From an uncultured virus (IMG/VR IMGVR_UViG_3300028590_000012) (Duplodnaviria; Heunggongvirae; Uroviricota; Caudoviricetes), in the IMG/VR virus record IMGVR_UViG_3300028590_000012: DNA of 64,000 nucleotides, one strand, 5' to 3'. The position numbers and the translations under genes were made by a program. Of the stretch, positions 3,001 to 44,035 are shown in pieces. The notes under the pieces are model-generated. The model did not search any database. It worked only from the letters and a program-made list of their open reading frames with translations, and was not told the origin of the DNA. How positions within the stretch are numbered: position 1 is the stretch's first letter; every line of letters starts with the position of its first letter.

Positions 3001-5184
3001 CGTGAGCGGGACGCCTTGGTAGGGGTCCGGTTCTGTGGAGATTTCCGTAGCGGCTTCTGCTTTGGCTTGCTGCTTGGCCGGAAGCTTCTTTATCGCCTTT
3101 TTGACCCGCTCGCTCTTGGGCTTTACGTAATGAGCAATGTCGTTCCGCTCAATTACTTGTGTCTCTCCTGTGCGGTCATTTACAACCTCGAAAGAATGCT
3201 CGTCGTTAGCACGTTCCGCCTCTGTTTGCGGGAGAGCGCGAGTAATGGTGAACGTCTGAGGATTTCCACGCAACTGGACACGCTGGGGCTGCTGTTGGGC
3301 TGGTTCCGTAGCTCCTGTACTTGCAGTAGGTGCTTGCTGAACTCCTTCTGGGACATTTGGCTGATCTTGCTGGATCGGAGGGTTTTCATTGACCGCTACC
3401 TCTTGGCCTTGCGCTTCACTGAGTACGCTATCGCTAATGCTTGCTTGCGCGGTTTCCCGGCCCTCAATTCCGTCTTCAGGTTGGACTTGAAGGCCTTCTT
3501 GCTGGGTGACTGTTTCAATGGCATTGGGTTCTCCTTCTGGTTGTGCTGTCGTGATCTGCGCTTGGGCAAGTGCAACATCCGCTAGAGCAGGTGTCTCTCC
3601 TGCCGCAAGGGCTTCTTCCACCCTTGCTCTGGCGGCTTGTTGCTCAGATTCGACAGGCAAATCTGCTTGTGTATCACCGACAGGGGTTTCGTTAACGACA
3701 ACGGGTTCAGAAAGGGGTTGCTCCGTCCCGGCTTCCGTTTCCACCGCTGGAGTTACGGCTGGGGTTGGAGCAAATTGGGTTTCCTCTGTAGCCTGAACAT
3801 GGGCTTCTAGAGAGGGCTTGGAAAGGTCTGCTGCTGGAGTTGAAAGCAGTTCGTCGATGACGCTGGCAGATTTGCGCTGGGACTCGATCCTGTTGTCAGT
3901 GACTTCTGCGGCTGCGATTTCCACCACGGCCTCGGCTGCCGCTGGAGAATCATTAGCCTCAAGGTTCTTAGCCTGGACTGCGGCTTGTTGAACAATAGCT
4001 GTTTCTTTGGCTGATGCCGCGCCAGCCACTTGTGCAACGGTAGTTCCACCTAATCCCACTGCTGCTCCAACTAGGACGGAACTTGCAACATCCTTTGTCA
4101 GGGGTCGCTCTGGGTCGTACTTCTCAAGTTGCTTGGCAACCGTGTTGAGCCAAAGTTGCTGTGTTCCCTCAGTTCCACCTTCCTGAGCGCCTTGCTTGGC
4201 AATTTCTGAAAGGGCTTGTCTGATCGTGGACTTTCCCTCCATGGCGCGAAGGGTTTTCCCCACGAGAAGCTTATCTGCCAGGACTTCCAGGGGGCCGGAT
4301 ACCGCCACGTATTCCTTGGCTGCTGCGTGGGCTTTTTCTGGAGTTGCTCCCGACTGGATCGCATCATCGTAACCCTCTTGGTAGAGCTGCCCAATAGCCA
4401 TCGCTGGGCCAAGACCCGGCACCGCATAGGCCGGGATATTGGCGAGTTGACCGATACCTTGGGCAGCTTGTCCTAGGAATGTGCTTTGAAATTCATCGCT
4501 GACTGGGAGAGCTTGGCGCGCACCTTCCCGCATTCCAGAGGCTTCATTGGCGGCTGTTTCGAGAAATCCTCCAACGTCTCTCCGTGCCTGCTGTGCTTCC
4601 GGGGTTACCGCAAGGTTCTCAATGCTCCCTGGAGTGGTGAGACGGGTAAGGTCTGCTTCCGCCGCAGCCTTATCCAGACCCACCTGGGCCTTCTGGGATT
4701 CGGCATCCTGTGGGGACATCCGACCCTCTTTCACCATGTCATCAATCATGGTGATGGTTTGGTCGAATCCTGCGACCTTCTCCTTGGCTCGGGCCAGCGG
4801 ATCAGCTTCAGAGATTTCCTGACCCAATCCACGGTAGATGCCTTCTGAGGACATCAACACGCCCTCGGACGTAGCTCCCCTGGCGATGGCTGGAAAAACA
4901 TTCCCTATACTGTCTTCAAGGCTGTTGGCAACATTCTCTAAGAAGTTGGTTTCCGGGAGCTTGGATGCGGCCTGAATCTCCTTCAGTTTTGCCGCTGTGG
5001 AGGTATGGAACTGGTCCTGAATGGCGGCATCCTGCCATGCCCCTACAGAGTCTCCATAGGAACGGGTAGCTTTGGCCCAATTCCCAAGCGTGATGGCCTT
5101 GTCCTCGGGGGATAGCTTCTGAAACTCCTCGTTTGTTTCAACCTCCTGCCAAGACGGCGGGGCAAGGATTTCCTCGGTGGGCAT
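1..5184 (-). CDS. Giant virion/internal (ejection-type) protein, >1700 aa, C-terminus beyond the window edge
   Basis: ATG at 5184 (MPTEEILAPPSWQEVETNEEFQKLSPEDK...). The frame was spot-checked as open and no ORF in this frame appears in the track, consistent with running off the edge. Ala/Glu/Gln-rich; follows other structural genes. Confidence 0.75.
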   Translation of the reverse strand, partial: MPTEEILAPPSWQEVETNEEFQKLSPEDKAITLGNWAKATRSYGDSVGAWQDAAIQDQFHTSTAAKLKEIQAASKLPETNFLENVANSLEDSIGNVFPAIARGATSEGVLMSSEGIYRGLGQEISEADPLARAKEKVAGFDQTITMIDDMVKEGRMSPQDAESQKAQVGLDKAAAEADLTRLTTPGSIENLAVTPEAQQARRDVGGFLETAANEASGMREGARQALPVSDEFQSTFLGQAAQGIGQLANIPAYAVPGLGPAMAIGQLYQEGYDDAIQSGATPEKAHAAAKEYVAVSGPLEVLADKLLVGKTLRAMEGKSTIRQALSEIAKQGAQEGGTEGTQQLWLNTVAKQLEKYDPERPLTKDVASSVLVGAAVGLGGTTVAQVAGAASAKETAIVQQAAVQAKNLEANDSPAAAEAVVEIAAAEVTDNRIESQRKSASVIDELLSTPAADLSKPSLEAHVQATEETQFAPTPAVTPAVETEAGTEQPLSEPVVVNETPVGDTQADLPVESEQQAARARVEEALAAGETPALADVALAQAQITTAQPEGEPNAIETVTQQEGLQVQPEDGIEGRETAQASISDSVLSEAQGQEVAVNENPPIQQDQPNVPEGVQQAPTASTGATEPAQQQPQRVQLRGNPQTFTITRALPQTEAERANDEHSFEVVNDRTGETQVIERNDIAHYVKPKSERVKKAIKKLPAKQQAKAEAATEISTEPDPYQGVPLTNAAPLPSVNIPLFNELSELGVFDEDATATKVLQKIADSKSTPDWAKTLSKRLLALGTAMDIQAVNRPDSSWSALYVGGETPATLINLARRNPGAALSILHEASHRVTLDQIRNPEKLTGEARKAYDELVAIHKEISAMPEFQGEYGISNVEEMVAEAFSNAGFRKKLDRVRPGQKQTLWQRFVNAIARLLFNKPAAQTSLLHSAVENAFTLAGAPIIESRGGSAPMRSGETLYHATRNSYDGIPKVPFYAASNPEYASNFGANPKEIRVFPKNTLDLTEVSADFDSGSQELKRLLESGGVNTTGIKFAKDEELAQSLANNLQELSARIANAGYDSVRLNEYFYGGGKDTTLLVVSESALDSGESAVAAMAESGSWSETITNPNASEAAEAKALVEATQELESDAGIDVTPLTPEQQQLLQETDTFKPLGLTALFARQFSNIPGTDFNDRQSEAVQGLVKAAKSYDAAKGVSFPQYAAGIIRNHMRDYAKSRKIRSKYVTPDRPVMEDDDVETIVSTAPFPQETTIAENDRKRMQGVAREALQAVMSQASERDRTILRGYASGQSLREIGAEVGLSQEGVKKTITRYRTNVEKALFLRGINDISEILAPVEEQTAAETTRQTTPEDEQAFQESTVGTLEAQDLEQGRPIYSDEGLVDEGVFAADSGEIEALAQNDAVSSMSKWISADNGRTAEAGRDADLEAFRSGASTRTLEPTDARAARRVLGNDVNFNAFAGELEKIFGKRIVFLTDLPSTAPSALFLKSNPDAIYINVNGNYPLMFLTGHEFGHSLKAKNKALYEDLQQFVLDNATDWTAYKNNLINNKGYSEFQAADEFTEDFIGAHFNDGKFWRRLWQKDKPLFERLVDAAMDFLNALTGRASSMSRDVRPFFKNWEETRDKLVSIVEQAKNGNLDQDLVAPMAERAIPESNKEIASQFEKGLEGQDKFKEVITQEAGQSLDSILADVLSKPAESVDDVYRRLGEAFKYEYGFPDFLTEKALDFI
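3396..3524 (-). CDS. Small basic protein nested in another frame of the giant ORF
   Basis: MPLKQSPSKKAFKSNLKTELRAGKPRKQALAIAYSVKRKAKR resembles a common small phage protein type (MPLKK...GKPQKQAIAIA). Confidence 0.6.
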   Translation of the reverse strand: MPLKQSPSKKAFKSNLKTELRAGKPRKQALAIAYSVKRKAKR

Positions 5185-5199
5185 CCTTCAAGATGTAGG

Positions 5200-6237
5200 C
5201 TACGGACCCGTTTTTGTCGAGGGTTTCGGGAAGAGACTTTGAATTGGCATCGTCTTCACCGGAGTACCTGTAGCTGCGTCTGCGGAAGGATTGGATTGCA
5301 GGGACACAATTTCCTGGGAGATGGCGTTGTAGTCATCAGCCAAGTCTCCTGTGAGGTCTGCCGGGCTCTGGACACCTGCTGTGCGCAAAATTCCGAGACG
5401 CTGGGCGCGTTTGCTGCTGATCTCCCGCTGCACCTGCTGCGGAGTCATGGGACGATCCTCGTATTTCTGGCGCTCCTGCTCGGCCTTCATCTGGTTGATG
5501 AAACCTGAAGCTTTGGAAAAGGCTTCAATGCGCTTTTCGGGTGTAATGAACTGTCCCGGTTCCACCTTCATGGCATCCTGGTACACCTTCATAGCGGCGG
5601 GGCCAAAAGCTGCTACCTGTGCATCAAGGCTCTGCGCCATGCGGTCTTGGGCGTATTGCTCCCTTGCATCATCATCCTGCGCCTGCCGTTTCAGGATTTC
5701 ATTGGCCTGCATCTGCTGGGCGTGGGTTTGGTCTAGGCGTCCCAACTGGGTTTGCAGGGCTTGGTTTTGGGCAGCCAGCGGGTAGGTTTTGAGGAAAAGG
5801 GCCTTCTGGGCTTCGTAGTCAGGGGTTCCGGGAGTAAGGTCCGCAAGCGCGGGCTGCGCCTCCTCAGCTTGATTGATGACCCGGTTATCGTAGTCCAACT
5901 GCTGCTGAGTAACACGCTGGTTCAACAATTGTCCTCGGATGTTTACCTGACGAGCCTGCTGCTGGGTCTGGAACTCATCCATTGCCATCTGCTCCTCAAG
6001 GGGAACCTGCTGGCGTGGGATGGTAGGACTTACGGGGTAGCGGTCAGATACCTCGTTGTACACGTTCCTGTCCCCACGGAAGGCGTAAGGATCTCCCATT
6101 GCGGTCTGATCCTTGTATTGCGTTACCCAACTGAGTCCCGGCTGTGGCATTCTGGTCCTATCGGTGAAGCTTGTCGTGGTACCATCCCCGTTGGGGTAGG
6201 TGATTGTGATGAACTGGGCAAGAAGGAGAGCAATCAT
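5200..6237 (-). CDS. Putative virion/ejection protein (Gln-rich)
   Basis: 345-aa ORF directly upstream of the giant ORF. Confidence 0.6.
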   Translation of the reverse strand: MIALLLAQFITITYPNGDGTTTSFTDRTRMPQPGLSWVTQYKDQTAMGDPYAFRGDRNVYNEVSDRYPVSPTIPRQQVPLEEQMAMDEFQTQQQARQVNIRGQLLNQRVTQQQLDYDNRVINQAEEAQPALADLTPGTPDYEAQKALFLKTYPLAAQNQALQTQLGRLDQTHAQQMQANEILKRQAQDDDAREQYAQDRMAQSLDAQVAAFGPAAMKVYQDAMKVEPGQFITPEKRIEAFSKASGFINQMKAEQERQKYEDRPMTPQQVQREISSKRAQRLGILRTAGVQSPADLTGDLADDYNAISQEIVSLQSNPSADAATGTPVKTMPIQSLFPKPSTKTGP

Positions 6238-6279
6238 GCCACACACTACGATTGAGAATAACTGGCGTCAACGCATCCA

Positions 6280-6927
6280 TCAGTAGAACCCGTTGGCCCG
6301 GCGCTGCATGTACTCCCGGAAAGGACTGTTTCCAGCAAACTGCTCCTGCCACCATGCACGGTTCGCCTCGTAAGACCTTCCTCCTTGCATCTCCTGAAGA
6401 GATTGAGCTTGGTCCAAAAGTTCCATGCCCAACACAGGATTGCCACGCCTACGAGCAGCAATTGATGCTGCCCGCAAAGATCCTTCCTGAGCGTTTGCCA
6501 TGTTTGCCGCTCCTACCGCCCGGCGCTGATCTATCAGGGAAGGGTTGTCGAGCGAACGATTGCTAGAACGCCCCGTCAGGCGCGCGGCTCCAATGGTATT
6601 GGGGTTAATGCCCTGCTCTTCCAGGAAAGCATTGTATCGGTCCCTGCGAGAGTTTGCGGCGTCGGCCTGCTCTTCGGCCCTACGCGCCCCGATCTGCTCC
6701 GCTGCCACCATGGCCCGGTCTGCCTGTTCTGGCGTAACCGCTGGGATTTGCCGCACTCCAGGAGCGGGTAGCACGGGATTCCTTGCTGCTACTTGCGCAG
6801 GAGTTGCTCCCAAGGCTTCCCGCACAGGCATTCCGTTGATGGTTCCTCCGGGAGGGAGTGCTGCCCTGCGGGCGCGGTACGCTTGTATGAATGCGTCCGT
6901 TTCTGGGTCATTTGAGGCTTTGGCCAT
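6280..6927 (-). CDS. Putative virion/internal protein
   Basis: 215-aa Ala/Arg/Gln-rich ORF, co-oriented with the ejection-type genes. Confidence 0.55.
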   Translation of the reverse strand: MAKASNDPETDAFIQAYRARRAALPPGGTINGMPVREALGATPAQVAARNPVLPAPGVRQIPAVTPEQADRAMVAAEQIGARRAEEQADAANSRRDRYNAFLEEQGINPNTIGAARLTGRSSNRSLDNPSLIDQRRAVGAANMANAQEGSLRAASIAARRRGNPVLGMELLDQAQSLQEMQGGRSYEANRAWWQEQFAGNSPFREYMQRRANGFY

Positions 6928-7439
6928 GGAGTATTGGTGAACAATACGTACCCATACTGCAATTGAAGTGCAAGAAGGAAAAGCTTGTGCCGAATTGGGA
7001 GGAATCTAGGAATTTTTCCTAGAACCCCGAACCACCAACTCCAGTTCCACCCTAGAAATCCACTCCAGAACTTTCTTTCGTGAATCAGTGTGAATGTCTT
7101 TCATATCGGTCCTCACTGGCATCATGTCCGACATATATCTCTGAAGGAACCCTGTTGATACCGATGCGGGGATAGGGCCATTTGAAACCAGCGCCGAGTT
7201 AAGATCCACAAATTCTTTCCCAAGAAGGACGGTCTGAATGATTTTCGTGATCATGGAAGGAATTCCTGACATAGGAAATTCGCTGACTCAATCTCCATTT
7301 CTATTCCCGACATCGGCGGACTTACGTGGACGAAAAAACTTTCCCCTTGCGCTCCTTTGGGGGAGTGGTATGGTCGCCTTGCTCGTTCGGGTCGCATCCG
7401 AAGGATAACACTTTCCAAAGCCGGTTTAACCGGAAGAGG

Positions 7440-7471
7440 CCCGGAGGATGCGACCCTCCGGGTTTTTCTTT
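7440..7471 (+). terminator. Intrinsic terminator
   Basis: CCCGGAGG-loop-CCTCCGGG followed by TTTTTCTTT. Confidence 0.7.
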
Positions 7472-7543
7472 GGCATGAAGCGCAAGCAGTTCCCCAAAGA
7501 GACTCAACGAGTCGTTAATCCCTTTCAGCGTCATTGTGGGGAC

Positions 7544-7573
7544 AAAAAGATCGGGTAGCACTTTATATCCCGA
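7544..7573 (-). terminator. Probable terminator ending the tRNA/HNH operon
   Basis: Minus strand TCGGG...CCCGA followed by TCTTTTT. Confidence 0.45.
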
Positions 7574-7585
7574 GCACTGGCCTCT

Positions 7586-7866
7586 GAACCTGAAACACGG
7601 AGAACGGAGAAGCCTTTGAACCCGCAGATCGAGATCGAGGTGGAACCTCGCCCCGTCATTCCCGTAAGGGAGGGCATAATCACGTCATCCTACGCATTAC
7701 CACATGACCGAGTGCGCAGAGTGCTACTGGACGTGATCCAGTATAGAATCTGGTATGTTCGGAAACTTCAAGCGACCCACAACCGCGTTTCAGTTCTTAG
7801 CTCCCGTGTAACATCGGGGGCACTATGCCCGTGTTCTTCTACAATTTCCCCTCCCGGTTTCAGTCG
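7586..7866 (-). ncRNA. Candidate structured ncRNA downstream of the HNH gene
   Basis: Long-range helix GAACTGAAACGCGG/CCGTGTTTCAGGTTC encloses ATCACGTC/GACGTGAT, CTGCGCA/TGCGTAG and CGAGG/CCTCG; G-U pairs favour the minus strand. Confidence 0.4.
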
Positions 7867-7879
7867 TATGAAAATAACT

Positions 7880-8458
7880 CTACGACAAGAAATGATTCCA
7901 GTCCTGAACTCCATGCTTGTTCCTGATGAACAAGCTGACAGGAAGCTCCTTTGGGGCTTGTGGAGCACGGGAAAGCTTCAGTCCTGCTTCCTGTGGAAGC
8001 CTGTCAGCTTTCCTGCTATTCACCTTTTTATCAGCAAGAACGCAATTCTCCCAGGATGTAGCTCCTCCCTTTGATCGAGGAAGTACGTGGTCAATATTCG
8101 CTTCTTCGGGAGATAGTTTTCTTCCAGTGTATTGACAGATTCCATTGTCCCTTTCCCAAATTGTCTTGGATGAAAGCTTTGGTCGCTTCTTTGGAACCTT
8201 TGCGTAGTTGCACAGAACAATCACAGTGGGAACCCGAATCGCCATTTTTGAAGTATGTACTGCACAGTCAGTTTCCCTTACTGGCAGCTTCATCCAGTCA
8301 GTCCACTTTACGGCCTGCATGTTCTGACCATCTATGTCCAGTGCTGTGGCAACGTCCGTTGCGAGCATACAGATTGCTTCTGCAACAGTTTTGGTGTGGA
8401 TGGGCTGCCAAGATCGGTTCAGGACAAGAACCGTTGGCTTGTGGAGGATGTCTGTCAT
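7880..8458 (-). CDS. HNH endonuclease (McrA-like, tRNA-array-associated type)
   Basis: VLVLNRSWQP...IWERDNGICQYTG...IDHVLPRSKGGATSWENCV...NSRKADR. Confidence 0.9.
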   Translation of the reverse strand: MTDILHKPTVLVLNRSWQPIHTKTVAEAICMLATDVATALDIDGQNMQAVKWTDWMKLPVRETDCAVHTSKMAIRVPTVIVLCNYAKVPKKRPKLSSKTIWERDNGICQYTGRKLSPEEANIDHVLPRSKGGATSWENCVLADKKVNSRKADRLPQEAGLKLSRAPQAPKELPVSLFIRNKHGVQDWNHFLS

Positions 8459-8491
8459 AAATTCGTTAGTCTGTTCTTCTTGTTTTCGAAA

Positions 8492-8569
8492 TGGTGGAAG
8501 CGGACGGAGTTGCACCCTCACCTTGCCGGTTAAAAGCCGGATATGCTTGTCTGTTAACACTACGCTTCC
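8492..8569 (-). tRNA. tRNA-Lys(TTT)
   Basis: GGAAGCG/CGCTTCC acceptor, loop CTTTTAA, CCA. Confidence 0.85.
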
Positions 8570-8574
8570 TGAAA

Positions 8575-8650
8575 TGGTCCCTCATCCCGGTAATGCTCCG
8601 GGCACAGTGCTTTTTGAGAACACTCGGTCTGCTATTGCCATCAATGAGGG
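8575..8650 (-). tRNA. tRNA-Leu(CAA), short variable arm
   Basis: CCCTCAT/ATGAGGG, loop CTCAAAA, A73-CCA. Confidence 0.75.
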
Positions 8651-8651
8651 A

Positions 8652-8727
8652 TGGTCCCCATGATTGGTCTTGCACCAACACATTACATCCTTCTCGGGGA
8701 TGCTCCTCTGCTTTGGGATACATAGGG
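8652..8727 (-). tRNA. tRNA-Leu(GAG), short variable arm, C33
   Basis: CCCTATG/CATGGGG, CATCC-CCGAGAA-GGATG, CCA. Confidence 0.75.
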
Positions 8728-8730
8728 AAA

Positions 8731-8806
8731 TGGTACCGCCGACCGGTGCTGCCCCGGCTCGCTCCTCCTTGAAAGGGAGGCAGACATGCTGTTGTCCATC
8801 AGCGGC
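8731..8806 (-). tRNA. tRNA-Glu(TTC)
   Basis: CCTCC-CTTTCAA-GGAGG, CCA. Confidence 0.8.
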
Positions 8807-8812
8807 ATAAAT

Positions 8813-8886
8813 TAGAACCCGAACATGGACTCGCACCATGACTTGTCCTCGTTCAAAGCGAGGGTGACTACTTTGCCGACTCGGGT
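8813..8886 (-). tRNA. tRNA-Gln(TTG), ends CTA rather than CCA
   Basis: CCTCG-CTTTGAA-CGAGG. Confidence 0.75.
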
Positions 8887-8888
8887 AT

Positions 8889-8981
8889 TGGTCCTCCTGC
8901 TAGGTAACGCTCCTAGACTCGGCCCACTTCAAGGACTACTGACGATTATAAGTCGTCCGGTTCTCTTTGAACTACAGGAGG
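8889..8981 (-). tRNA. tRNA-Ile(TAT) with long variable arm
   Basis: CCTCCTG/CAGGAGG (same 5' acceptor strand as Ile-GAT), GACGA-CTTATAA-TCGTC, ~24-nt variable region. Confidence 0.8.
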
Positions 8982-8984
8982 AAA

Positions 8985-9071
8985 TGGCGGATCGCAGAGG
9001 ACTTGCACCCCATGCCCGAAGGCATCATCTGTTTAGCAAACAGCGAAGGCACCTTGGCCCCTATACGATCC
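8985..9071 (-). tRNA. tRNA-Ser(GCT)
   Basis: Loop TTGCTAA, long variable arm, G73-CCA. Confidence 0.85.
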
Positions 9072-9075
9072 AAAA

Positions 9076-9149
9076 TGGCTGGGCTCCGTGGATTCGCACC
9101 ACAACGACCTGTTTCAGAGACAGGCAGGCTACTATTACCTCAGAACCCA
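9076..9149 (-). tRNA. tRNA-Gln(CTG)
   Basis: CCTGT-CTCTGAA-ACAGG, G73-CCA. Confidence 0.8.
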
Positions 9150-9155
9150 ATAAAA

Positions 9156-9228
9156 TTGGATAGGAGTGTGCTATCCGCTACACCAACGAGCCGAAGCCCG
9201 TGTTGGATTCGAACCAACGCTTCTCCAA
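9156..9228 (-). ncRNA. Circularly permuted tRNA mimic (YrlA/Y-RNA-like module)
   Basis: Order is T arm GTTGG-TTCGAAT-CCAAC, acceptor ACGGGC-TTCG-GCTCGT closed by UUCG, D arm GTGT-AGCGGATA-GCAC, open stem GGAG/CTCC. Confidence 0.75.
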
Positions 9229-9230
9229 GA

Positions 9231-9305
9231 TGGAGGGAATCGAGAGACTTGCGCTCTCCTCTCAGGTTTACAAAACCCGTGCATCGCTTTCTATGCTTGA
9301 AACCC
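9231..9305 (-). tRNA. tRNA-Thr(TGT)
   Basis: CGGGT-TTTGTAA-ACCTG, CCA. Confidence 0.8.
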
Positions 9306-9309
9306 AAAA

Positions 9310-9395
9310 TGGCGGTCAGCGGAAGTATCGCGCTCCAAACCCGAAGGTTCCTTCCGTTTTCGAAACGGAGTCCATGCTTCATGGATTCACTAACC
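9310..9395 (-). tRNA. tRNA-Ser(CGA)
   Basis: TCCGT-TTCGAAA-ACGGA, long arm, G73. Confidence 0.8.
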
Positions 9396-9399
9396 AAAA

Positions 9400-9474
9400 T
9401 GGTGGTTCGCCACGGTACTGCCCCGTGTTCTCAAGGTTAAGAGCCAAGTGCATCACTTCGTATGCTTGCGAACC
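9400..9474 (-). tRNA. tRNA-Lys(CTT)
   Basis: GGTTCGC/GCGAACC, loop CTCTTAA, mismatched anticodon stem. Confidence 0.8.
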
Positions 9475-9476
9475 AA

Positions 9477-9563
9477 TGGCGGTTGATGGAGGTATTGCGC
9501 CCCAAGGATTGCTCCTCCACCTGTTTTCCAAACAGGGACAGCCCCTTGACTGTGCCACCAACC
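9477..9563 (-). tRNA. tRNA-Ser(GGA)
   Basis: CCTGT-TTGGAAA-ACAGG, long arm, G73. Confidence 0.8.
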
Positions 9564-9566
9564 AAA

Positions 9567-9792
9567 TTCAGACAATAGCCGCGATTCTGTAACCCTTTCG
9601 GGGTTCATCATTCGACTGACGATTTCTCGCCGGGAGTATTAACTTCCCCGCACCAACCCGCCTTCTCAGGGAAGCACTACCCTCAGGCTGTTTGGCTTGC
9701 TGATACCACGTAGTAAAAACGGACGAATCCTCCTACGGCTGCTTTTCAGTCGCGAACTTCCTCACCATTGCTGGCGCGATGAACTATCTGAA
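9567..9792 (-). ncRNA. rnpB: Minimal bacterial-type RNase P RNA (~226 nt; catalytic domain intact, S-domain largely missing)
   Basis: P1 TTCAGATA/TGTCTGAA; P2 GTTCATC/GATGAAC; P3 CGCCA-GCAA-TGGTG; GAGGAAGTTCGCGAC and ACAGAATCGCGGCTAT (P4); AGCAAG-CC-AAACAG...GGGTTGG-TGC (P15 with GGU); P18 GGCGA-GAAA-TCGTC; P19 CCC-GAAA-GGG. Confidence 0.85.
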
Positions 9793-9793
9793 A

Positions 9794-9869
9794 TGGAGCC
9801 CAAGGTCGGATGTGCGCCGACCATCTCCCGCTTACCGAGCGGGCGCATCGCTATCTATGCTTCATGGGC
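9794..9869 (-). tRNA. tRNA-Thr(GGT), C33
   Basis: CCCGC-TCGGTAA-GCGGG, CCA. Confidence 0.8.
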
Positions 9870-9874
9870 AAAAA

Positions 9875-9948
9875 TGGTCCGTGACCCCAGAGTTGCACTG
9901 GGCCTGCATCTTTCACAGAGATGAATGCTTCTGCTACACTATCCACGG
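9875..9948 (-). tRNA. tRNA-His(GTG), A73, no encoded G-1
   Basis: CATCT-CTGTGAA-AGATG, ACCA end. Confidence 0.8.
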
Positions 9949-9949
9949 A

Positions 9950-10017
9950 TGGAGCCTCATCTGGCATCTCAGCCAGCACGCCTATTTACGAAACAGGACT
10001 AGGATCTTACATGAGGC
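9950..10017 (-). tRNA. tRNA-Thr(CGT), reduced D arm
   Basis: GCCTCAT/ATGAGGC, CCTGT-TTCGTAA-ATAGG, only 68 nt. Confidence 0.65.
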
Positions 10018-10020
10018 AAA

Positions 10021-10099
10021 TGGCGCTCCGAGTAGGACTTGCACCCACAACCACATCGGTTCGAAGCCGAGTATGCAAAAGCTCTTACACCTCCGGAGC
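10021..10099 (-). tRNA. tRNA-Arg(TCG)
   Basis: Loop CTTCGAA, GCTCCGG/TCGGAGC, CCA. Confidence 0.8.
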
Positions 10100-10103
10100 A
10101 AAA

Positions 10104-10177
10104 TGGTGTTCCTGCCGAGATTCGCACTCGGGGCTGTACCTTCGCAGGGTACCGTGATTCTGCTTCACTACAGGAAC
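10104..10177 (-). tRNA. tRNA-Arg(GCG)
   Basis: GTACC-CTGCGAA-GGTAC, GTTCCTG/CAGGAAC, CCA. Confidence 0.85.
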
Positions 10178-10178
10178 A

Positions 10179-10253
10179 TGGTGCCCTACCCCAGTGCTGC
10201 CCTGGGTCATCCGCTTTGGAAGAGCGGCATCATAGCTGGTAGATCAGTAAGGC
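10179..10253 (-). tRNA. tRNA-Gly(TCC), A73
   Basis: CCGCT-CTTCCAA-AGCGG. Confidence 0.8.
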
Positions 10254-10269
10254 TTGTTGAACAATAAAG

Positions 10270-10344
10270 TGGCCGTTGGAATCCGTAACGCTCGGATCTC
10301 TGCGGTTCTTCAGACCGCCGCACATCTGTCTATGCCATCCAACG
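10270..10344 (-). tRNA. tRNA-Phe(GAA), G73
   Basis: GCGGT-CTGAAGA-ACCGC. Confidence 0.8.
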
Positions 10345-10348
10345 AGAA

Positions 10349-10422
10349 TGGTCCTCCGGGGTGGTACTGCCCCACCGTCTTGCGTTTATCAAACGCGGAT
10401 TCTGCTTTTGAACTACAGGAGG
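10349..10422 (-). tRNA. tRNA-Ile(GAT)
   Basis: Loop TTGATAA, CCTCCTG acceptor, CCA. Confidence 0.85.
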
Positions 10423-10423
10423 A

Positions 10424-10497
10424 TGGTGCCCAGCCGAGGAATCTCACCCCGTCTTCAGCTTTGTAAGAGCCGCTCGCTAATGTTACAACAGCCGGGC
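10424..10497 (-). tRNA. tRNA-Val(TAC)
   Basis: CGGCT-CTTACAA-AGCTG. Confidence 0.8.
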
Positions 10498-10500
10498 AAA

Positions 10501-10573
10501 TGGTGGCGGGGGTGGGAGTCGCGCCCACGGAGGCAAGCTTATGAGACTCGCTGGAATACTCATTCTCCCCGAC
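10501..10573 (-). tRNA. tRNA-Met(CAT) (initiator/elongator/Ile2 status unresolved)
   Basis: CGAGT-CTCATAA-GCTTG; fMet-like CGGGG/CCCCG acceptor. Confidence 0.75.
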
Positions 10574-10579
10574 ATAAAA

Positions 10580-10656
10580 TGGTGCCTGTGGCAGGATTTG
10601 CACCCGCAACCTCTGCGTTCTAAGCGCAGCGCCTCTGCTGGTTGGGCTACACAGGC
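10580..10656 (-). tRNA. tRNA-Leu(TAG), short variable arm
   Basis: GCCTGTG/CACAGGC, CTGCG-CTTAGAA-CGCAG, variable loop AGGTT. Confidence 0.85.
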
Positions 10657-10662
10657 ATAAAA

Positions 10663-10737
10663 TGGCGACCTCACCGGGTAACGCTCCCGATATTCCACCT
10701 TGAGAGGGTGGCGTCTCATCTTTTCGACTTTGAGGCC
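10663..10737 (-). tRNA. tRNA-Glu(CTC)
   Basis: CCACC-CTCTCAA-GGTGG. Confidence 0.8.
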
Positions 10738-10738
10738 A

Positions 10739-10805
10739 TGTTCCCAAACGGTAACGCTCCGTTTCATCAGACTTAGGAGGTCCGAGCCCGTCTATTGGTG
10801 GGAAC
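10739..10805 (-). tRNA. tRNA-Arg(CCT), reduced D arm, no encoded CCA
   Basis: GTTCCCA/TGGGAAC, CGGAC-CTCCTAA-GTCTG. Confidence 0.65.
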
Positions 10806-10811
10806 GGAAAG

Positions 10812-10887
10812 TGGCGGTTGAGACGGGTGCTGCCCCCGCTCGGTCCAGCTTGACGGGCTGGCATTGATGCTGTTCAAACTCTCAACC
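10812..10887 (-). tRNA. tRNA-Asp(GTC), C33
   Basis: CCAGC-CCGTCAA-GCTGG, G73. Confidence 0.8.
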
Positions 10888-10888
10888 G

Positions 10889-10974
10889 TGGCGGGTCACT
10901 GAGGTATCGCGCCCCAAGCCTTTCGGCTCCATCCGTTTTCAAGACGGCGACAGGACTTTCCTGTTTAATGACCC
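10889..10974 (-). tRNA. tRNA-Ser(TGA)
   Basis: Loop CTTGAAA, long arm, G73. Confidence 0.8.
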
Positions 10975-10978
10975 AAAA

Positions 10979-11053
10979 TGGCACCAGCACTTGGAGTCGC
11001 ACCAAGCTCGTGCGGTTTAACAGACCGACTGCGCACTCCGCGCATCTACTGGT
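10979..11053 (-). tRNA. tRNA-Asn(GTT)
   Basis: Loop CTGTTAA, G73-CCA. Confidence 0.8.
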
Positions 11054-11054
11054 A

Positions 11055-11121
11055 TATCCCATCACGGTAACGCTCCGTGCCTGAGTCTTTAGAAGAGACT
11101 TGTCCGTCTATCGGATGGGAT
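11055..11121 (-). tRNA. tRNA-Arg(TCT), reduced D arm, no encoded CCA
   Basis: ATCCCAT/ATGGGAT, AGTCT-CTTCTAA-AGACT. Confidence 0.7.
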
Positions 11122-11125
11122 GAAA

Positions 11126-11201
11126 TGGTCGGGCTACTGGGACTCGCACCCAGGATGTTCTGATCCCAAATCAGACGGATTAGCTGCTATCCTACAGCCC
11201 G
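11126..11201 (-). tRNA. tRNA-Pro(TGG)
   Basis: C1-G72, TCTGA-TTTGGGA-TCAGA, A73. Confidence 0.85.
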
Positions 11202-11202
11202 A

Positions 11203-11287
11203 TGGTGTATGGGGTCGGTAACGCTCCGACACAGTGCTAAGACGACGGGTTTACAGTCCGCGAGGCTCACTTTTGCCCAGCCCATAC
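11203..11287 (-). tRNA. tRNA-Tyr(GTA)
   Basis: Loop CTGTAAA, long variable arm, A73. Confidence 0.8.
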
Positions 11288-11288
11288 A

Positions 11289-11366
11289 TGGACTCCGTGG
11301 CGAGATTTCCACTCGCAAACCCTGAATTTTAAGAACAGGAGGTTTGGTAATTACCGTCACACGGAG
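11289..11366 (-). tRNA. tRNA-Leu(TAA), short variable arm, weak anticodon stem
   Basis: CTCCGTG/CACGGAG, loop CTTAAAA. Confidence 0.65.
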
Positions 11367-11380
11367 GTTGATTGTTAAAA

Positions 11381-11456
11381 TGGTGGAGATGAAGAGATTC
11401 GCACTCTCATAATCGCAACTTGCAAGGTTGGAGCATCCTCGTCTAGCCACATCCCC
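11381..11456 (-). tRNA. tRNA-Ala(TGC)
   Basis: G3:U70 pair, loop CTTGCAA. Confidence 0.85.
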
Positions 11457-11466
11457 ATTTTGAAAT

Positions 11467-11542
11467 TGGAGGCCAACCCCAGACTCCCACTGGGTAAATC
11501 GCGCTTTGCAGGCGCACGCTTCGAGTCTTTAGCTTGTTGGCC
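11467..11542 (-). tRNA. tRNA-Cys(GCA)
   Basis: Loop CTGCAAA, U73-CCA. Confidence 0.85.
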
Positions 11543-11543
11543 A

Positions 11544-11615
11544 TGGCAGGTTGCCTCAGTGCCGCCCTGAGCGGGATCGGATTTGGAGTCCAATCTGCAC
11601 GCTGGTGCGCAACCT
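11544..11615 (-). tRNA. tRNA-Trp(CCA)
   Basis: AGGTTGC/GCAACCT, loop CTCCAAA, G73. Confidence 0.8.
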
Positions 11616-11620
11616 ATAAC

Positions 11621-11691
11621 TGCGGTCGGCGGGAATTGCACCCGCATCTCATCGTTGGCAACGACAAATCCTGCTATTGAACGACGACCGC
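11621..11691 (-). tRNA. tRNA-Gly(GCC), A73, no encoded CCA
   Basis: GCGGTCG/CGACCGC, loop TTGCCAA. Confidence 0.85.
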
Positions 11692-11788
11692 GTGAAAACA
11701 AAAAGAACAGACCTTTCTCATTCCTGAGCCCACAGGTATTTCGCGGTGGTGTTTCGGAGATTCGGGCTCTCCTTCCAATCTGGCCCTT

Positions 11789-11850
11789 AAAATGAAAAAC
11801 CCTACTGGCTTGTTAGCGAGCAGGGTGAAAATGTTTTCTTGTGCTCGCTA
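11789..11850 (-). promoter_or_regulatory. Transcription attenuator (antiterminator/terminator switch)
   Basis: Terminator CCCTGCTCGCT-AACA-AGCCAGTAGGG-TTTTTCATTTT. TAGCGAGCA (11850-11842) pairs perfectly with TGCTCGCTA (11822-11814) in the terminator 5' arm. Confidence 0.8.
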
Positions 11851-11851
11851 G

Positions 11852-11950
11852 TTATTGACGCATCGGTTCTGCATTACGCAGGATGGAGCAATAATCTCCC
11901 GTCCAGATAAACTGGCTTTGGGATTTTGAATGCGAGGTTGTCTTGAACAT
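11852..11950 (-). CDS. Leader peptide of the tRNA operon (32 aa)
   Basis: MFKTTSHSKSQSQFIWTGDYCSILRNAEPMRQ*; the stop lies 1 nt before the antiterminator strand. Confidence 0.75.
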   Translation of the reverse strand: MFKTTSHSKSQSQFIWTGDYCSILRNAEPMRQ

Positions 11951-11956
11951 GGATGA

Positions 11957-11986
11957 AGTATTGTGCTAAACCATCAGGAATGTCAA
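11957..11986 (-). promoter_or_regulatory. Sigma70-type promoter of the tRNA operon (probably leaderless)
   Basis: TTGACA-N18-AATACT-N6-ATG. Confidence 0.55.
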
Positions 11987-12130
11987 CTGCATTCATTTCA
12001 TGACGACGAATTCCACACCCACACCCGAAAACCCCCGTAGCGAGCCTCCTACGCGCAAGGAAGGCCATCCCAGAAACTATCCCAGCGGTATCCGTGAGGA
12101 TCGCCCAGAAGACGATGTAGAGTATGACAC

Positions 12131-12475
12131 GTGAAATCCCTCCCCGCTAAAGAACTCTCCCTGCGCCCCTACCATGGAAGGCTGTTCGTGGCCAAGAGCA
12201 AGAATTCCTACCTCAAGGCCCACCAGATGTTGTTCAAGGAACCGGATGTTCTGGAATGCAATATATCTGGACGGTTCTCAGGAAAGATGAGCGCAGGAGG
12301 CGGCCATGACGAGATGTGGACCTACCTCGTCTGGGGTAACGCTCCTCACACCCTTGTCCACGAACTCTCCCATGCTGTCCTCCATGTATTCGAGCGCTGC
12401 GGGATCGACCCCAGGGAGGCTGGAGGAGAGCCCTTCTGCTACATGCTTTCCCAGCTTATGCTGGAGGCGAGGTAG
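12131..12475 (+). CDS. Small HExxH (zincin-like) phage protein
   Basis: TLVHELSHAV...GEPFCYM. Confidence 0.6.
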   Translation: MKSLPAKELSLRPYHGRLFVAKSKNSYLKAHQMLFKEPDVLECNISGRFSGKMSAGGGHDEMWTYLVWGNAPHTLVHELSHAVLHVFERCGIDPREAGGEPFCYMLSQLMLEAR

Positions 12476-12680
12476 GGGGATGGATGTAGGTCCAATGGGA
12501 TGGCTCTACAATTTCCCAGTCACATTCACAGATCGGACCAATATACCAACCCTTGCTACTATCAACGCCATCTACAATTCCGAATCTGTCTCCGTACTCT
12601 TCTGAGCGTATCCAAATGAGAACTGTTGACCCCGGTTCTGGGGATGCCTCTTTGGATGGAATCCATTTGAGAGTATTCAT
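12456..12680 (-). CDS. DUF551-like small phage protein
   Basis: KWIPSKEASPEPGSTVLIW...PSHWTYIHPP. Confidence 0.55.
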   Translation of the reverse strand: MNTLKWIPSKEASPEPGSTVLIWIRSEEYGDRFGIVDGVDSSKGWYIGPICECDWEIVEPSHWTYIHPPTSPPA

Positions 12681-12901
12681 GCTTGTTGAACAATAGTTGG
12701 CGGTTCAGGGAGGGGCATCCAGTAGGTAATTTTATCCCACATTTCAACATTGCAATCGTATCCTCCTATGCACTGCGGACAACACCAGTGCCGAATTGTA
12801 CGGTCATATGATGCCATACCCATCATTGTTCCGTCCCATACCAAAACGTCTCCTGCTTTAGATTCCGGCAACCGCTCCTCTACGCTGATCCAAGTGTTCA
12901 T
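12677..12901 (-). CDS. DUF551 family protein
   Basis: MNTWISVEERLPE...ITYWMPLPEPP. Confidence 0.75.
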   Translation of the reverse strand: MNTWISVEERLPESKAGDVLVWDGTMMGMASYDRTIRHWCCPQCIGGYDCNVEMWDKITYWMPLPEPPTIVQQA

Positions 12902-12944
12902 ACCCTCCATTCTGCCACAGCCATCAGACAGTGCAAGGAGATAG

Positions 12945-12973
12945 TTGACAGGATGCGACATGGTGCGTATGGT
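12945..12973 (+). promoter_or_regulatory. Sigma70-type promoter
   Basis: TTGACA-N17-TATGGT, ATG 6 nt downstream (12980). Confidence 0.65.
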
Positions 12974-13181
12974 ATCCCCATGATCCTCTTCTGCGCAGCA
13001 AACCTAACCCTGATCTCCGCAGGCATTGCCTGGGACAGATTATTCCCGGCAAGAATGGGCCGGAAATCCCTTCACATTCAGGCCATTTTGAGGAAATCAT
13101 GAACACTGAGAGGACCAGATGCTCATGAAGTGCGTATATCGAAAATGATCCAGCTAACACCACGATGAGGAATCCCGAGCC

Positions 13182-13499
13182 ATGAGCGCGACCAGAAAGA
13201 GCGGCAATCCCGAGGGATTTGCTCCATCGCCTGTTCGACAATATGGGCCTTGGTCCACGGAGTACGGTGTAGAAATGATCGAGGAAATTGGTGGATCGTG
13301 GGCAAATGTGGACGATTACGAAACTCTCAAACGAGAACATAAAAATCTGTGGGATGCTCTGCAAGAACTGGTCAACGACGAGTGGCGAGTGTGTTGCGAC
13401 TATGGGCCGTATGAGGAAAGAGCCGCGATCCTAAAGCGGGCCGAAGATGCTTTGTCGAACAGCGCTCCGAGCAGCGGAGGAGGGCAAAATGAGCGTTAA
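13182..13499 (+). CDS. Hypothetical phage protein
   Basis: 105-aa ORF in a plus-strand run. Confidence 0.5.
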   Translation: MSATRKSGNPEGFAPSPVRQYGPWSTEYGVEMIEEIGGSWANVDDYETLKREHKNLWDALQELVNDEWRVCCDYGPYEERAAILKRAEDALSNSAPSSGGGQNER

Positions 13500-14372
13500 C
13501 GGAACGTCTGCTCCGGCAAGTGGTTCACGCGACATGGAGCGTGCCAGCAAAGAAGCCCGACGGAGTGGAGCGGCGCGCTGTTCACGCGACCTGTGCCCGA
13601 CCTGCAAGGGCCGAGGCTGCATTTCGCTGGTGATTAACTATCAGCACACCAGCGCCAATTGCGACCGGTGCCAGGGCACAGGTCGCGTGAACGTGGAAGT
13701 GAGCCACCGAGAGGAGGCGTCCGATGTCTGAATCAACATCAACGGCGGTTGGCTCGACTGACTGGGTAGCCGCCGCCCGAACATGCGAGACGCTCGCGAA
13801 TGAAATAGATGTGCTCCTGAAGACCGTGGGGACGGAGACAATGCGCGAACTCACGAATCTCTCCGACGACAGACATGCGCTCTGGAGAGCCGCGAGAGCA
13901 CTACAGACCAAGGCGGCTACCAGTGATTCAGCAATCGCCGTTCGTGTATCAAATCCCGCAACCGAAACTCCCCCAAAGGAATAACCAAAATCACCCTCAT
14001 GAGCCAATCCGCCTACAGACTACGCCGGAAGCCCTACAGCAAGCATGAACTACAAGACCACTGGGAATGCCGGGAAGGCTCCACGAATGGCAGATATGAG
14101 GATTCCTGCTGGTGCTGTGGGGAGGAACGGGAGAAAGATTCCGAACAAGAACACCACGATGAAGAGTGAACTCAGGATGCGGTTTGAAACCGTGTTTTAC
14201 ACAGAACAGGAGAGGGAATGCCTTCGACAAGAGCGTATCAGAGAAGCCATGGCTTGGATTCCTCCAATGACCTACTCCAAGGAGGTGATCCTTTATCCTG
14301 GAGACGCTGGCTATGACAATGCTCCGTATGTCATGGGATGTGAGTTTGGGACAATCTCTTACCCCATCACGA

Positions 14373-14702
14373 ATGAGTGACTTGTTGAACAATACTCCTG
14401 AAATTCGCGGCATTCAGAGAACCGTTCCGATATTTGATGATTTTCCTACCATATCTCCCACAGGAATTGAGGCCGAGGTCTGCGCTGACATCGCCTCCCG
14501 TCAGGCTGTTGGGATCAGGAAATACGGTGTGACGTTGGCGGAAAATCCCGCTGACCTTCTGGAACGACTTCAGCACGCCTACGAGGAATGCTTGGATCAA
14601 GCCTGCTACCTGAAGTGGGCCATGAAGGTATTCAATGTAACTTCCCATTCCCACGCCTCAAAAGCCTCTGTAGCGTGTCCTGATGGCGAAACCATGCCAT
14701 GA
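14373..14702 (+). CDS. Conserved-looking phage hypothetical protein
   Basis: RQAVGIRKYGVTL...LQHAYEECLDQACYLK; stop overlaps the next start (ATGA). Confidence 0.6.
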   Translation: MSDLLNNTPEIRGIQRTVPIFDDFPTISPTGIEAEVCADIASRQAVGIRKYGVTLAENPADLLERLQHAYEECLDQACYLKWAMKVFNVTSHSHASKASVACPDGETMP

Positions 14703-33830: not shown

Positions 33831-34034
33831 CCCACCCTGACTTGTTGAACAATACTCACGATGAGCGCATATAAATCCTGCGGGACATCCCGAGAAGCAA
33901 ACGACTGGATCCGATTTGTGGATGTTTTAACTGCCAGGCTCAACGAGCACTGCGCCGCGCCCAATCACTCACCTCTCAACAAAAACCCTGTAGCGGTTAT
34001 TTTGACGCAAATGCGGGGGTAATCTGAACGAACG

Positions 34035-43057: not shown

Positions 43058-44035
43058 TCCCTTCCGAAGCCATGTTTGCCATTTCCAAACCACAATGACC
43101 CCCTACACCTTCCATCGAGCCTCTGGCTGGCATCCCTTGGACCTGCCCTCTGACGAGGAAGCCATACGCAACGCCCTGTGTAATCCTGGGACCGTATCTG
43201 TCGTCAACGAAGTGACCGGGAAGGTGGTCTGGTCGGAAGCTGACATTATTGACCATCAACTGCCATGAACAACATCGAAGAAACCCACTCCATTCTCGCC
43301 AACGAGAACTTCCGCTACTGCGTATGCTTCCTGAAAAACTCCGGAGAGAAGATCCGTGCCATGCGCCTTGTAAGGGATGTCACCGGACTCCCGATTGGCG
43401 CTGTGATGAGTTGGGTGAATGCCCTTCACATACCATTGGGCGTGGCGGATGAACTGGTACGTTGGGTAGAAAATCCCGAATACGAGAACGCTACCGCTGA
43501 AATTGTTCTGACTGGAGTGCCTCAAGGGCTGCGCGAGAGTTGCAAAATGCCCACAAATGGACGGGTCAACGAGTTCTTTGTGTGCTCTTTCTGCCAAGAA
43601 CTTCCAGAATGGACTGAACCATGAAGGTCTGGCACATAATTCAGAACCGTCCGATCAACATCATTGAGCTACTCCCGGATGACGAGATGTACTTCGGAAT
43701 GGAAATGGCCGAGTGGAATGAACCAATCGCTATAGCTCGTGACTCAATCTGCCCGCATTGTATTTCTGGAAGGTCCCATATCCATCAGTTAGGGGAACAC
43801 ATTCATGCGTTTGGGGCGCCTGCCGGGAAAAATCCTCCAAAAAACCATGCCACCCACACACCTTGAAGTAGTTTTCCGCCACAAGAATGGCCGGGAAGAA
43901 GTCCGCTACCGCCGTCCCATTGACTCCGCATCCGCCAAGGAACTCCGGGAGTTCGTGGATGCCCTGCGGGAGGATCTTGGGGAAGATTGCCAGTATGGGT
44001 ATCGTTATGTGTGACTTGTTGAACAATACTCCTGA

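Follow-up and report, generated by a model that had tools for sequence, protein, structure and literature searches.

We analysed a 64,000-nucleotide (nt) stretch of DNA from an uncultured soil phage (IMG/VR record IMGVR_UViG_3300028590_000012; the whole 64-kb stretch is referred to below as the window), and in it a short leader that lies on the minus strand in front of an array of tRNA genes. Computation placed a strong sigma70-like promoter, a 32-codon open reading frame (ORF) with the translation MFKTTSHSKSQSQFIWTGDYCSILRNAEPMRQ, and two mutually exclusive hairpins, an antiterminator and a U-tailed terminator, ahead of the first tRNA, all of them within a cassette that also holds the array (Table 1). 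Based on this layout and on the predicted folds, an attenuator architecture is credible, and somewhat stronger than the original prediction, which had been made from the sequence letters without database searches, had described. That prediction combined two proposals, and they fared differently: the terminator/antiterminator pair between a strong promoter and the first tRNA was supported by computation, and a pan-codon OR-gate, in which stalling at any codon would allow read-through, was not supported as stated. The reading that we favour, and hold tentatively as a real possibility, is that the leader is a ribosome-mediated transcription attenuator that reads the general speed of translation and gates a mobile tRNA-array cassette. 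The signal sensed would most likely be general ribosome speed and not the supply of one amino acid.

The antiterminator is formed by the perfect pairing of TAGCGAGCA (11850-11842) with TGCTCGCTA (11822-11814), the latter also written UGCUCGCUA, across a 19-nt loop that contains a 4-base-pair (bp) inner stem. Its stability was unusual (z -3.53), with none of 200 shuffles folding as well. The terminator goes beyond a 7-bp stem; it has the structure A-CCCUGCU-C-GCU-AACA-AGC-C-AGUAGGG-U, followed by UUUUUCAUUUU, and ranked 4th of 147 hairpin-plus-U-tail candidates on both strands of the window (128 kb). A simple terminator scan missed it, its stem having a 1x1 mismatch. Terminator and antiterminator have 8 nt in common (11822-11815), which makes them mutually exclusive. 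The pairing reported in the original prediction, of an arm 1 nt after the ORF with the 5' arm of a U-tailed terminator, was confirmed, with 9 perfect bp. The position of the stop codon also agreed with that prediction: the TAA (11854-11852) is followed by C11851 and then directly by the antiterminator 5' arm (11850-11842), so that the stop ends 1 nt before the arm, and masking of 13-16 nt from the stop, as by a terminating ribosome, gave the terminator fold.

The free 162-nt leader RNA (11950-11789) folded at -42.7 kcal/mol (z -3.66; 0 of 200 shuffles as stable), and the forced antiterminator state at -40.6 kcal/mol, the two being 2.1 kcal/mol apart. The terminator had a pair probability of 0.97 in the free RNA, and a second pairing, of CUCGC within the ORF (region 1) with GCGAG of the antiterminator 5' arm (region 2), had one of 0.96. 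The free leader is therefore predicted to lie in a four-segment, trp-like state in which 1:2 and 3:4 pairs are formed. This disagrees with the earlier description of the leader as an inverse of trp that lacks a region 1.

In the mechanism that we propose, the host RNA polymerase would start at A11950, and the transcript, which would begin with AUG, would be translated leaderless. Provided that ribosome and polymerase are coupled and that the terminator is efficient, the response would run as follows. A ribosome keeping pace with the polymerase would, at the last codons or the stop, cover UAGCGAGCA (region 2); with region 2 covered, region 3 would pair with region 4, and the U-tailed terminator would end transcription 97 nt before the first tRNA. 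A ribosome that lagged or stalled early, especially over region 1 (codons ~2-11, FKTTSHSKSQ), would allow regions 2 and 3 to pair, in which case the terminator could not form and ~36 tRNAs would be transcribed. As the products of the array speed translation, the circuit would be a negative feedback on tRNA supply.

We modelled the ribosome as a 30-nt footprint masked at each A-site position from 2 to 33, and took equilibrium minimum-energy folds of the remainder. The antiterminator was obtained at 17 of the 32 positions (codons 2-7, 9-11, 14-15, 20-21, 23 and 27-29) and the terminator at 15, including positions 30-33 (codons 30-32 and the stop). The proposal that a stall at any codon would give read-through is thus not what the model predicts. 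The clean part of its prediction is that stalls over region 1 would open the switch and arrival at the end would close it; for stalls in the middle of the ORF this equilibrium model gives no clear outcome, the energies of the two states being almost the same. The local hairpin inside the ORF, present in both the minimum-energy and centroid folds, is a possible structural element or, by conjecture, a pause site for RNA polymerase.

The promoter (TTGACA-18-AATACT) agrees with the consensus at 10 of 12 positions and was joint best of the seven sites found in a scan of 4000-14000. Its -10 element ends 7 nt before A11950, so that the predicted +1 is the A of the leader ATG, the predicted transcript opens with AUG and would be a leaderless mRNA. 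No Shine-Dalgarno sequence precedes the leader ORF, and such sequences are rare in this phage, even a loose match occurring in only 10 of 34 long ORFs. The leader ATG lies 6 nt after CAATACT, the 3' half of a 15-nt motif, TTGTTGAACAATACT. There are 15 copies of CAATACT in the window versus 4.05 expected, and 7 of the 15, the leader's among them, have an ATG within 0-7 nt, versus a background of 13%. Real genes also start 0-7 nt after CAATACT (dnaB at 5 nt and a gene for a 215-amino-acid (aa) protein at 2 nt), indicating that the start context of the leader resembles that of real genes of the phage. Between the terminator and the first tRNA, no promoter was detected on the minus strand by the sigma70 scan; that tRNA, a tRNA-Gly(GCC) at 11691-11621, begins 97 nt downstream of the U-tract.

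To judge the geometry of the leader we kept the hairpin fixed and dinucleotide-shuffled the 103 nt upstream of it. Strict geometry, which required an open frame, an ATG no more than 1 nt from +1 and a stop 0-3 nt ahead of the arm, arose in 0.08% of shuffles. Liberal rules, which accepted ATG, GTG or TTG anywhere in the first 43 nt and a stop lying between 15 nt ahead of the arm and 3 nt inside it, were satisfied by 30%. The true odds lie between these two values, since the definition was chosen after seeing the case.

Several points weigh against an attenuator. The leader-ORF arrangement is common under the liberal rules, as just described, and the absence of a Shine-Dalgarno sequence means that leader translation rests wholly on the predicted start site. 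The 1:2 helix has only 5 bp and closes a large multiloop, and we estimate that a 5-bp match of region 1 to the arm is not rare by chance. The ORF region (~100 nt) was not unusually structured when folded alone (z -1.33; 20 of 200 shuffles as stable), and the footprint model flipped irregularly between the two states, with the antiterminator at little over half of the positions. Canonical terminators were not enriched in the phage, with 9 found by the simple scan versus 10.5 expected. Lastly, the conservation of the leader in the relative from sequencing run X3, described below, is at the nucleotide level, extending over all 21 visible third-codon positions and the promoter, and it comes from a single diverged array-bearing relative seen only through an overlapping reading frame.

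Some of these points would be expected if the promoter were constitutive and followed by a structured 5' leader, the ORF being fortuitous and the hairpins serving the processing, stability or pausing of a tRNA precursor, with a weak hairpin competition that has no regulatory role. We consider this rather unlikely, and it deserves to be taken seriously: a short ORF ending near the hairpin is frequent in the shuffles under liberal rules, the diversity of the peptide is only a 1.3-5.3% event against its own composition, the ORF lacks a Shine-Dalgarno sequence and was passed over by gene callers, and the X3 conservation is at the level of nucleotides. It leaves unexplained, however, why a terminator of such high rank stands between the only evident promoter and the tRNAs, and why it overlaps a stronger upstream hairpin by 8 nt; the rarity of the strict geometry among shuffles also speaks against it.

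The ORF has the composition given in the original prediction, which was exact: 19 distinct amino acids (no Val), 27 distinct codons in 32, and 17 different amino acids in residues 13-30. A cluster of codons for a single amino acid, by which trp, his and thr leaders are classically recognised, was not found in it; the nearest approach is in residues 3-13, with four S, two T, two K and two Q, each encoded by a different codon. The exact peptide was absent from a collection of 15 billion proteins, and no gene caller had recorded it.

How unusual this diversity is depends on the null. At least 19 amino acids were found in 179 of the 54,642 stop-free 32-codon windows of the whole stretch (0.33%), in 1 of 106 ATG ORFs of 28-36 aa, in 0.5% of independent draws of 32 from the six-frame amino-acid composition, and in 1.3% of shuffled sequences that kept the letters of the ORF and contained no stop. 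Of all 32-codon windows, 6.8% had 27 or more distinct codons. Seventeen distinct residues in 18 were seen in 3 of 77,201 18-residue windows, a window that had been picked after the fact. The statistic that the pan-codon hypothesis itself calls for is the number of decoding classes; the 26 of the leader were reached in 1.4% of all windows, 0.9% of those in long ORFs and 5.3% of own-composition shuffles. The diversity is real, a 1-in-20 to 1-in-300 event, and is unusual and not extreme. Expressed as a frequency it is a 0.3-5% event, depending on the null. In a scan of such size, diversity alone cannot carry the pan-codon claim, and it is compatible with an attenuator mechanism without amounting to a demonstrated design.

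The isoacceptors that the leader's synonymous codons had been said to mirror are present in the array: four Ser tRNAs (TGA, CGA, GCT and GGA), three Thr tRNAs (GGT, TGT, and a CGT candidate recognised by eye only), two Lys tRNAs (TTT and CTT) and two Gln tRNAs (TTG and CTG). The mirroring itself has little power as evidence, because the array decodes nearly every codon class and almost any ORF would match it. By hand count, about two thirds of the leader codons have an exact anticodon partner, near the array's share of sense codons.

We regard it as quite unlikely that the leader was selected as a pan-tRNA sensor whose 26 decoding classes include every one of the Ser, Thr, Lys and Gln isoacceptors of the array. 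If it were, the loss of almost any usable tRNA, whether from host anticodon nucleases, host shut-off or phage attack on host tRNAs, would slow the ribosome and open the switch; the tRNAs of the array would then restore decoding, the ribosome would reach the stop and the array would be shut off. Such a leader would be a self-contained, transferable homeostat of tRNA supply. Phage tRNA genes have been discussed as countermeasures to host tRNA-cleaving defences (PMC10264068, PMC11464382).

The comparison with close relatives indicated that promoter, leader and array belong together. In a contig from a JGI metagenome (L024), blastn matched the sequences flanking the cassette on both sides (window 12485-12015, 96% identical; 7006-6001, 97% identical) and found no match between them. 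The flanking proteins are 95-98% identical, and the place of the cassette is taken in L024 by 1,135 unrelated bases (7028-8162 of L024) with three other ORFs. The promoter lies 28 nt inside the cassette boundary. Promoter, leader and array would therefore travel together, which argues that the leader belongs to the array.

The leader was identical to that of the window in run X2. In run X3, a 73-kb contig with the array was ~92-93% identical to the window over 11359-12100, with 49 substitutions and 11 gap letters in 742 nt. Among the indels listed none lay inside the ORF or either stem, with one 2-letter insertion placed only as somewhere in 11359-12100; one C was inserted in the antiterminator loop. 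The X3 leader was seen indirectly, via the 64-aa ORF that overlaps it in another frame (P0006 in X3, P0001 in the window), and this comparison, with the only diverged array-bearing relative, covers the promoter-proximal part of the leader. Residues 23-60 of the 64-aa ORF are identical in the two, so that 12002-11889 is without visible change; within this segment lie the promoter, the ATG and leader codons 1-21 with all of their third positions, and also the hairpin internal to the ORF. The preceding 22 codons (12068-12003) had five residue changes and one inserted residue. On the other side, the next change is at 11887, a base left unpaired in the fold, and replaces Ser by Ala at leader codon 22. 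By our own estimate, ~6.7 visible changes would be expected by chance in 117 nt at the ~8% divergence of the remaining aligned sequence, and none was seen. The promoter-proximal leader thus appears, from this comparison, to be an island conserved at the nucleotide level. The expectation that related leaders would keep codon diversity and not sequence was not borne out, as X3 retains the promoter and codons 1-21 without visible nucleotide change. Since it is nucleotides that are conserved, and since the conserved stretch takes in the promoter, signals in DNA or RNA could account for it rather than coding; one of these could be a rightward promoter driving the plus-strand gene whose start is at 12000.

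We rejected the overlapping 64-aa ORF (11874-12068) as a real gene, as it straddles the cassette junction at 12014/12015 and its N-terminal third is antisense to a conserved plus-strand ORF.

A leader of this kind could also be a riboregulator worked by some factor besides the ribosome, for example a protein, a tRNA or a small molecule. Ahead of the hairpins the leader has about 100 nt, of which the first 63 have no visible change in X3, unlike their flanks, and the whole leader folds well, all of which would suit such an element. We nevertheless consider it improbable, because Rfam gave no match in 11700-11990 at E up to 10 (no T-box, riboswitch or known-leader family), no T-box-like features were seen in the leader, and the upstream 100 nt fold no better alone than stated above. 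Our own cloverleaf parser and Rfam likewise found no tRNA or tRNA remnant within 11690-11960.

The leader might instead be a separate unit of ~155 nt, a small-protein gene or a small RNA, with the array transcribed from a non-sigma70 promoter or by leakage through the terminator. The ATG context that fits the start signature of real genes and the good terminator are consistent with this, as is the use by the phage of a non-canonical motif near gene starts: the 15-nt motif introduced above has 42 copies with three or fewer mismatches in the window versus 1.3 expected, and a 3-mismatch copy lies inside the array (10264-10250). Immediately before the array, however, no sigma70-like promoter was found on the minus strand at 11799-11691, and no copy of the motif within three mismatches; the peptide has no detectable relatives or features, and a separate unit would have no need of an antiterminator. 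We judge this explanation unlikely. That everything except the promoter is coincidence seems to us a slim chance: all of the statistics are post hoc and very many windows were scanned, but several independent features would need to have come together by chance.

Table 1. Features of the leader and the tRNA-array cassette, in window coordinates.
Feature	Position	Strand	Basis
Sigma70-like promoter	11957..11986	-	TTGACA (11986-11981), 18-nt spacer, AATACT (11962-11957)
32-codon ORF MFKTTSHSKSQSQFIWTGDYCSILRNAEPMRQ with TAA stop	11852..11950	-	Translation of the window
Candidate region 1, CUCGC, codons 5-7	11932..11936	-	Predicted pairing with GCGAG (11848-11844)
Local hairpin inside the ORF, UCCC..CCAG-UUUAU-CUGG..GGGA	11897..11923	-	Minimum-energy and centroid folds
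Predicted antiterminator hairpin (regions 2:3)	11814..11850	-	9 perfect bp, -15.2 kcal/mol
Predicted terminator hairpin (regions 3:4)	11799..11826	-	-13.5 to -15.2 kcal/mol
U-tract after the terminator stem	11789..11798	-	With stem-closing U11799 reads UUUUUCAUUUU
tRNA array	8492..11691	-	ARAGORN, Rfam RF00005, own cloverleaf parser, by-eye parses
HNH endonuclease gene, 3' end of the array	7880..8458	-	Pfam HNH_4 2.1e-09, plus HNH and HNH_5
5,008-nt cassette (promoter, leader, tRNA array, HNH gene, 88-aa ORF)	7007..12014	-	blastn versus L024

The array was read by several tools. ARAGORN identified 9 tRNAs at default settings and ~25 when relaxed, Rfam RF00005 matched 9 and our cloverleaf parser added 9 more to these. 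Tools parsed 33 tRNAs in all, covering 19 amino acids, and three further candidates recognised by eye only (Trp-CCA, Thr-CGT and Leu-TAA) bring the array to ~36. Most of the parsed tRNAs encode the 3' CCA.

Nucleotide 55 of tRNAs is almost universally U or pseudouridine. In the array, position 2 of the T-loop (nucleotide 55) was G in all 28 tRNAs with a parsed T-loop. The T-loop types include TGCRANT, AGCGTTA and GGCAGCA, and the D-loops have AG or CAG in place of GG18-19. The low Rfam scores of these tRNAs stem from the altered T-loops and D-loops. Judged from sequence, the elbow seems to be altered systematically throughout a complete tRNA set (tools accounting for 19 amino acids, and by-eye parsing for Trp); our literature search found nothing on such a set. 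Inside the array, a fragment at 9150-9230 (minus strand) has a fully canonical T-arm, GTTGG-TTCGAAT-CCAAC, and adjoins what seems to be the 5' half of another tRNA of canonical appearance. This fragment, possibly left over from host-type tRNA sequence, had no exact match in GTDB genomes.

The surroundings of the array vary between relatives. In X3, 518 nt of the array (window 10840-11359) are replaced by 611 other letters, indicating that array content differs between close relatives; at 12100-12378 there is a 387-letter replacement before a gene for a 114-aa protein, and a 216-nt deletion inside that gene. At the cassette edge, L024 has an intact 97-aa ORF of which the window retains the C-terminal part, as a 44-aa plus-strand ORF (12000-12134). 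The opposite end of the cassette has a strong terminator-like hairpin on the plus strand (7439-7473; 10 bp, -18.1 kcal/mol, U-tail), placed so as to stop rightward transcription running antisense through the array.

The core of TTGTTGAACAATACT is a palindrome, TTGTTSAACAA, and TGAC often precedes its copies. About a dozen copies, whose sites include 44016-44030, 33842-33856 and 14382-14396 on the plus strand and 6944-6930 on the minus strand, have the start codon of an ORF of at least 40 codons within 0-7 nt downstream. The motif may be a phage-specific promoter or gene-start signal, read perhaps by the phage's own sigma-like protein. An open-ended ORF lies at 1-5184 (minus strand). Its product exceeds 1,728 aa and has a sigma-70 region 2 domain (Pfam 4.9e-07); it matches PHROG 351, a family of RNA polymerase sigma factors, and, weakly at residues 1163-1320, a LuxR/GerE-type domain. 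Its relatives in IMG/VR and metagenomes are 37-44% identical, and the distant ones examined (L020-L023, L025 and L026) carry no tRNAs.

Other genes of the window, assigned by Pfam and PHROGs, encode DnaB, a terminase large subunit, a DUF551 protein, HNH endonucleases, an exonuclease, methyltransferases and a GDSL tail-type enzyme. The window had no DNA match in a collection of phage isolates, and its DnaB was at most 27% identical to that of isolates (best match). All of the sequencing runs with this DNA are labelled soil metagenomes, and none of the 13 is on record as an RNA run. No IMG/VR match was found for the 348-aa, 215-aa or HNH proteins, and an exact 22-nt piece of the leader had none in IMG/VR or GTDB genomes. 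A pattern search with the hairpin arms returned two matches, one in a coding region and one in a giant-virus contig, both of which we rejected as chance. The 114-aa neighbour protein has 17 relatives in IMG/VR, none of them syntenic and none with an adjoining minus-strand array. In two unrelated IMG/VR phages (L005 and L006; 7828-7985, plus strand), a tRNA-Met and a tRNA-Arg stand directly before the homologue of this protein on the same strand, and its gene, which is small and widespread (PHROG 1365), may repeatedly lie next to tRNA genes.

Little is known of how phages time the production of their tRNAs. Our literature search found no published leader-peptide control of tRNA arrays, a result that does not prove its absence from print. 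If the attenuator reading is correct, no attenuator of tRNA genes would have been known before this one, and a switch placed before a whole tRNA set would tie tRNA synthesis directly to decoding performance. The element is small (~200 nt) and self-contained on its cassette.

The trp, his, thr and ilv leader attenuators consist of a short promoter-proximal ORF, four RNA segments (pairing 1:2, 2:3 and 3:4) and an intrinsic terminator, and their stop codons are placed so that a terminating ribosome masks segment 2. The phage leader shares with them the short ORF, the predicted four-segment fold, the terminator and the placement of the stop. It differs in having no regulatory amino-acid run and no Shine-Dalgarno sequence, in being apparently leaderless and in its 1:2 helix of 5 bp, and the genes downstream are tRNAs of a phage cassette, not biosynthetic enzymes.

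Other known systems resemble the leader in particular respects. ToiL, the upstream ORF of E. coli topAI-yjhQ, is described as short, lacking an amino-acid run, responding to ribosome stalling at different positions and so sensing many translation stresses; it is chromosomal and acts via occlusion of a ribosome-binding site and Rho-dependent termination (PMC12121999). The phage leader is likewise of mixed codons, and differs in being phage-borne and in its intrinsic terminator/antiterminator pair. The leaderless polycysteine short ORFs of mycobacteria are reported to be first cistrons that serve as ribosome-stalling sensors for downstream genes; they are specific for cysteine and control the translation of the next gene via an RNA duplex (10.1101/834739). 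The phage leader would share their leaderless first-cistron layout, and differs from them in not being cysteine-specific and in its predicted transcription termination. The vmlR and bmrCD leaders of B. subtilis combine a leader ORF with a terminator and antiterminator and give read-through upon ribosome stalling, with antibiotics as inducers, resistance genes as targets and ribosome-binding sites before their leader ORFs (PMC9226507, PMC4191407). The phage leader would have the same type of output, and differs in its tRNA targets and in having no ribosome-binding site. By these analogies, the logic of the phage leader would be nearest to that of toiL and the mycobacterial leaderless ORFs, and its output nearest to that of vmlR and bmrCD.

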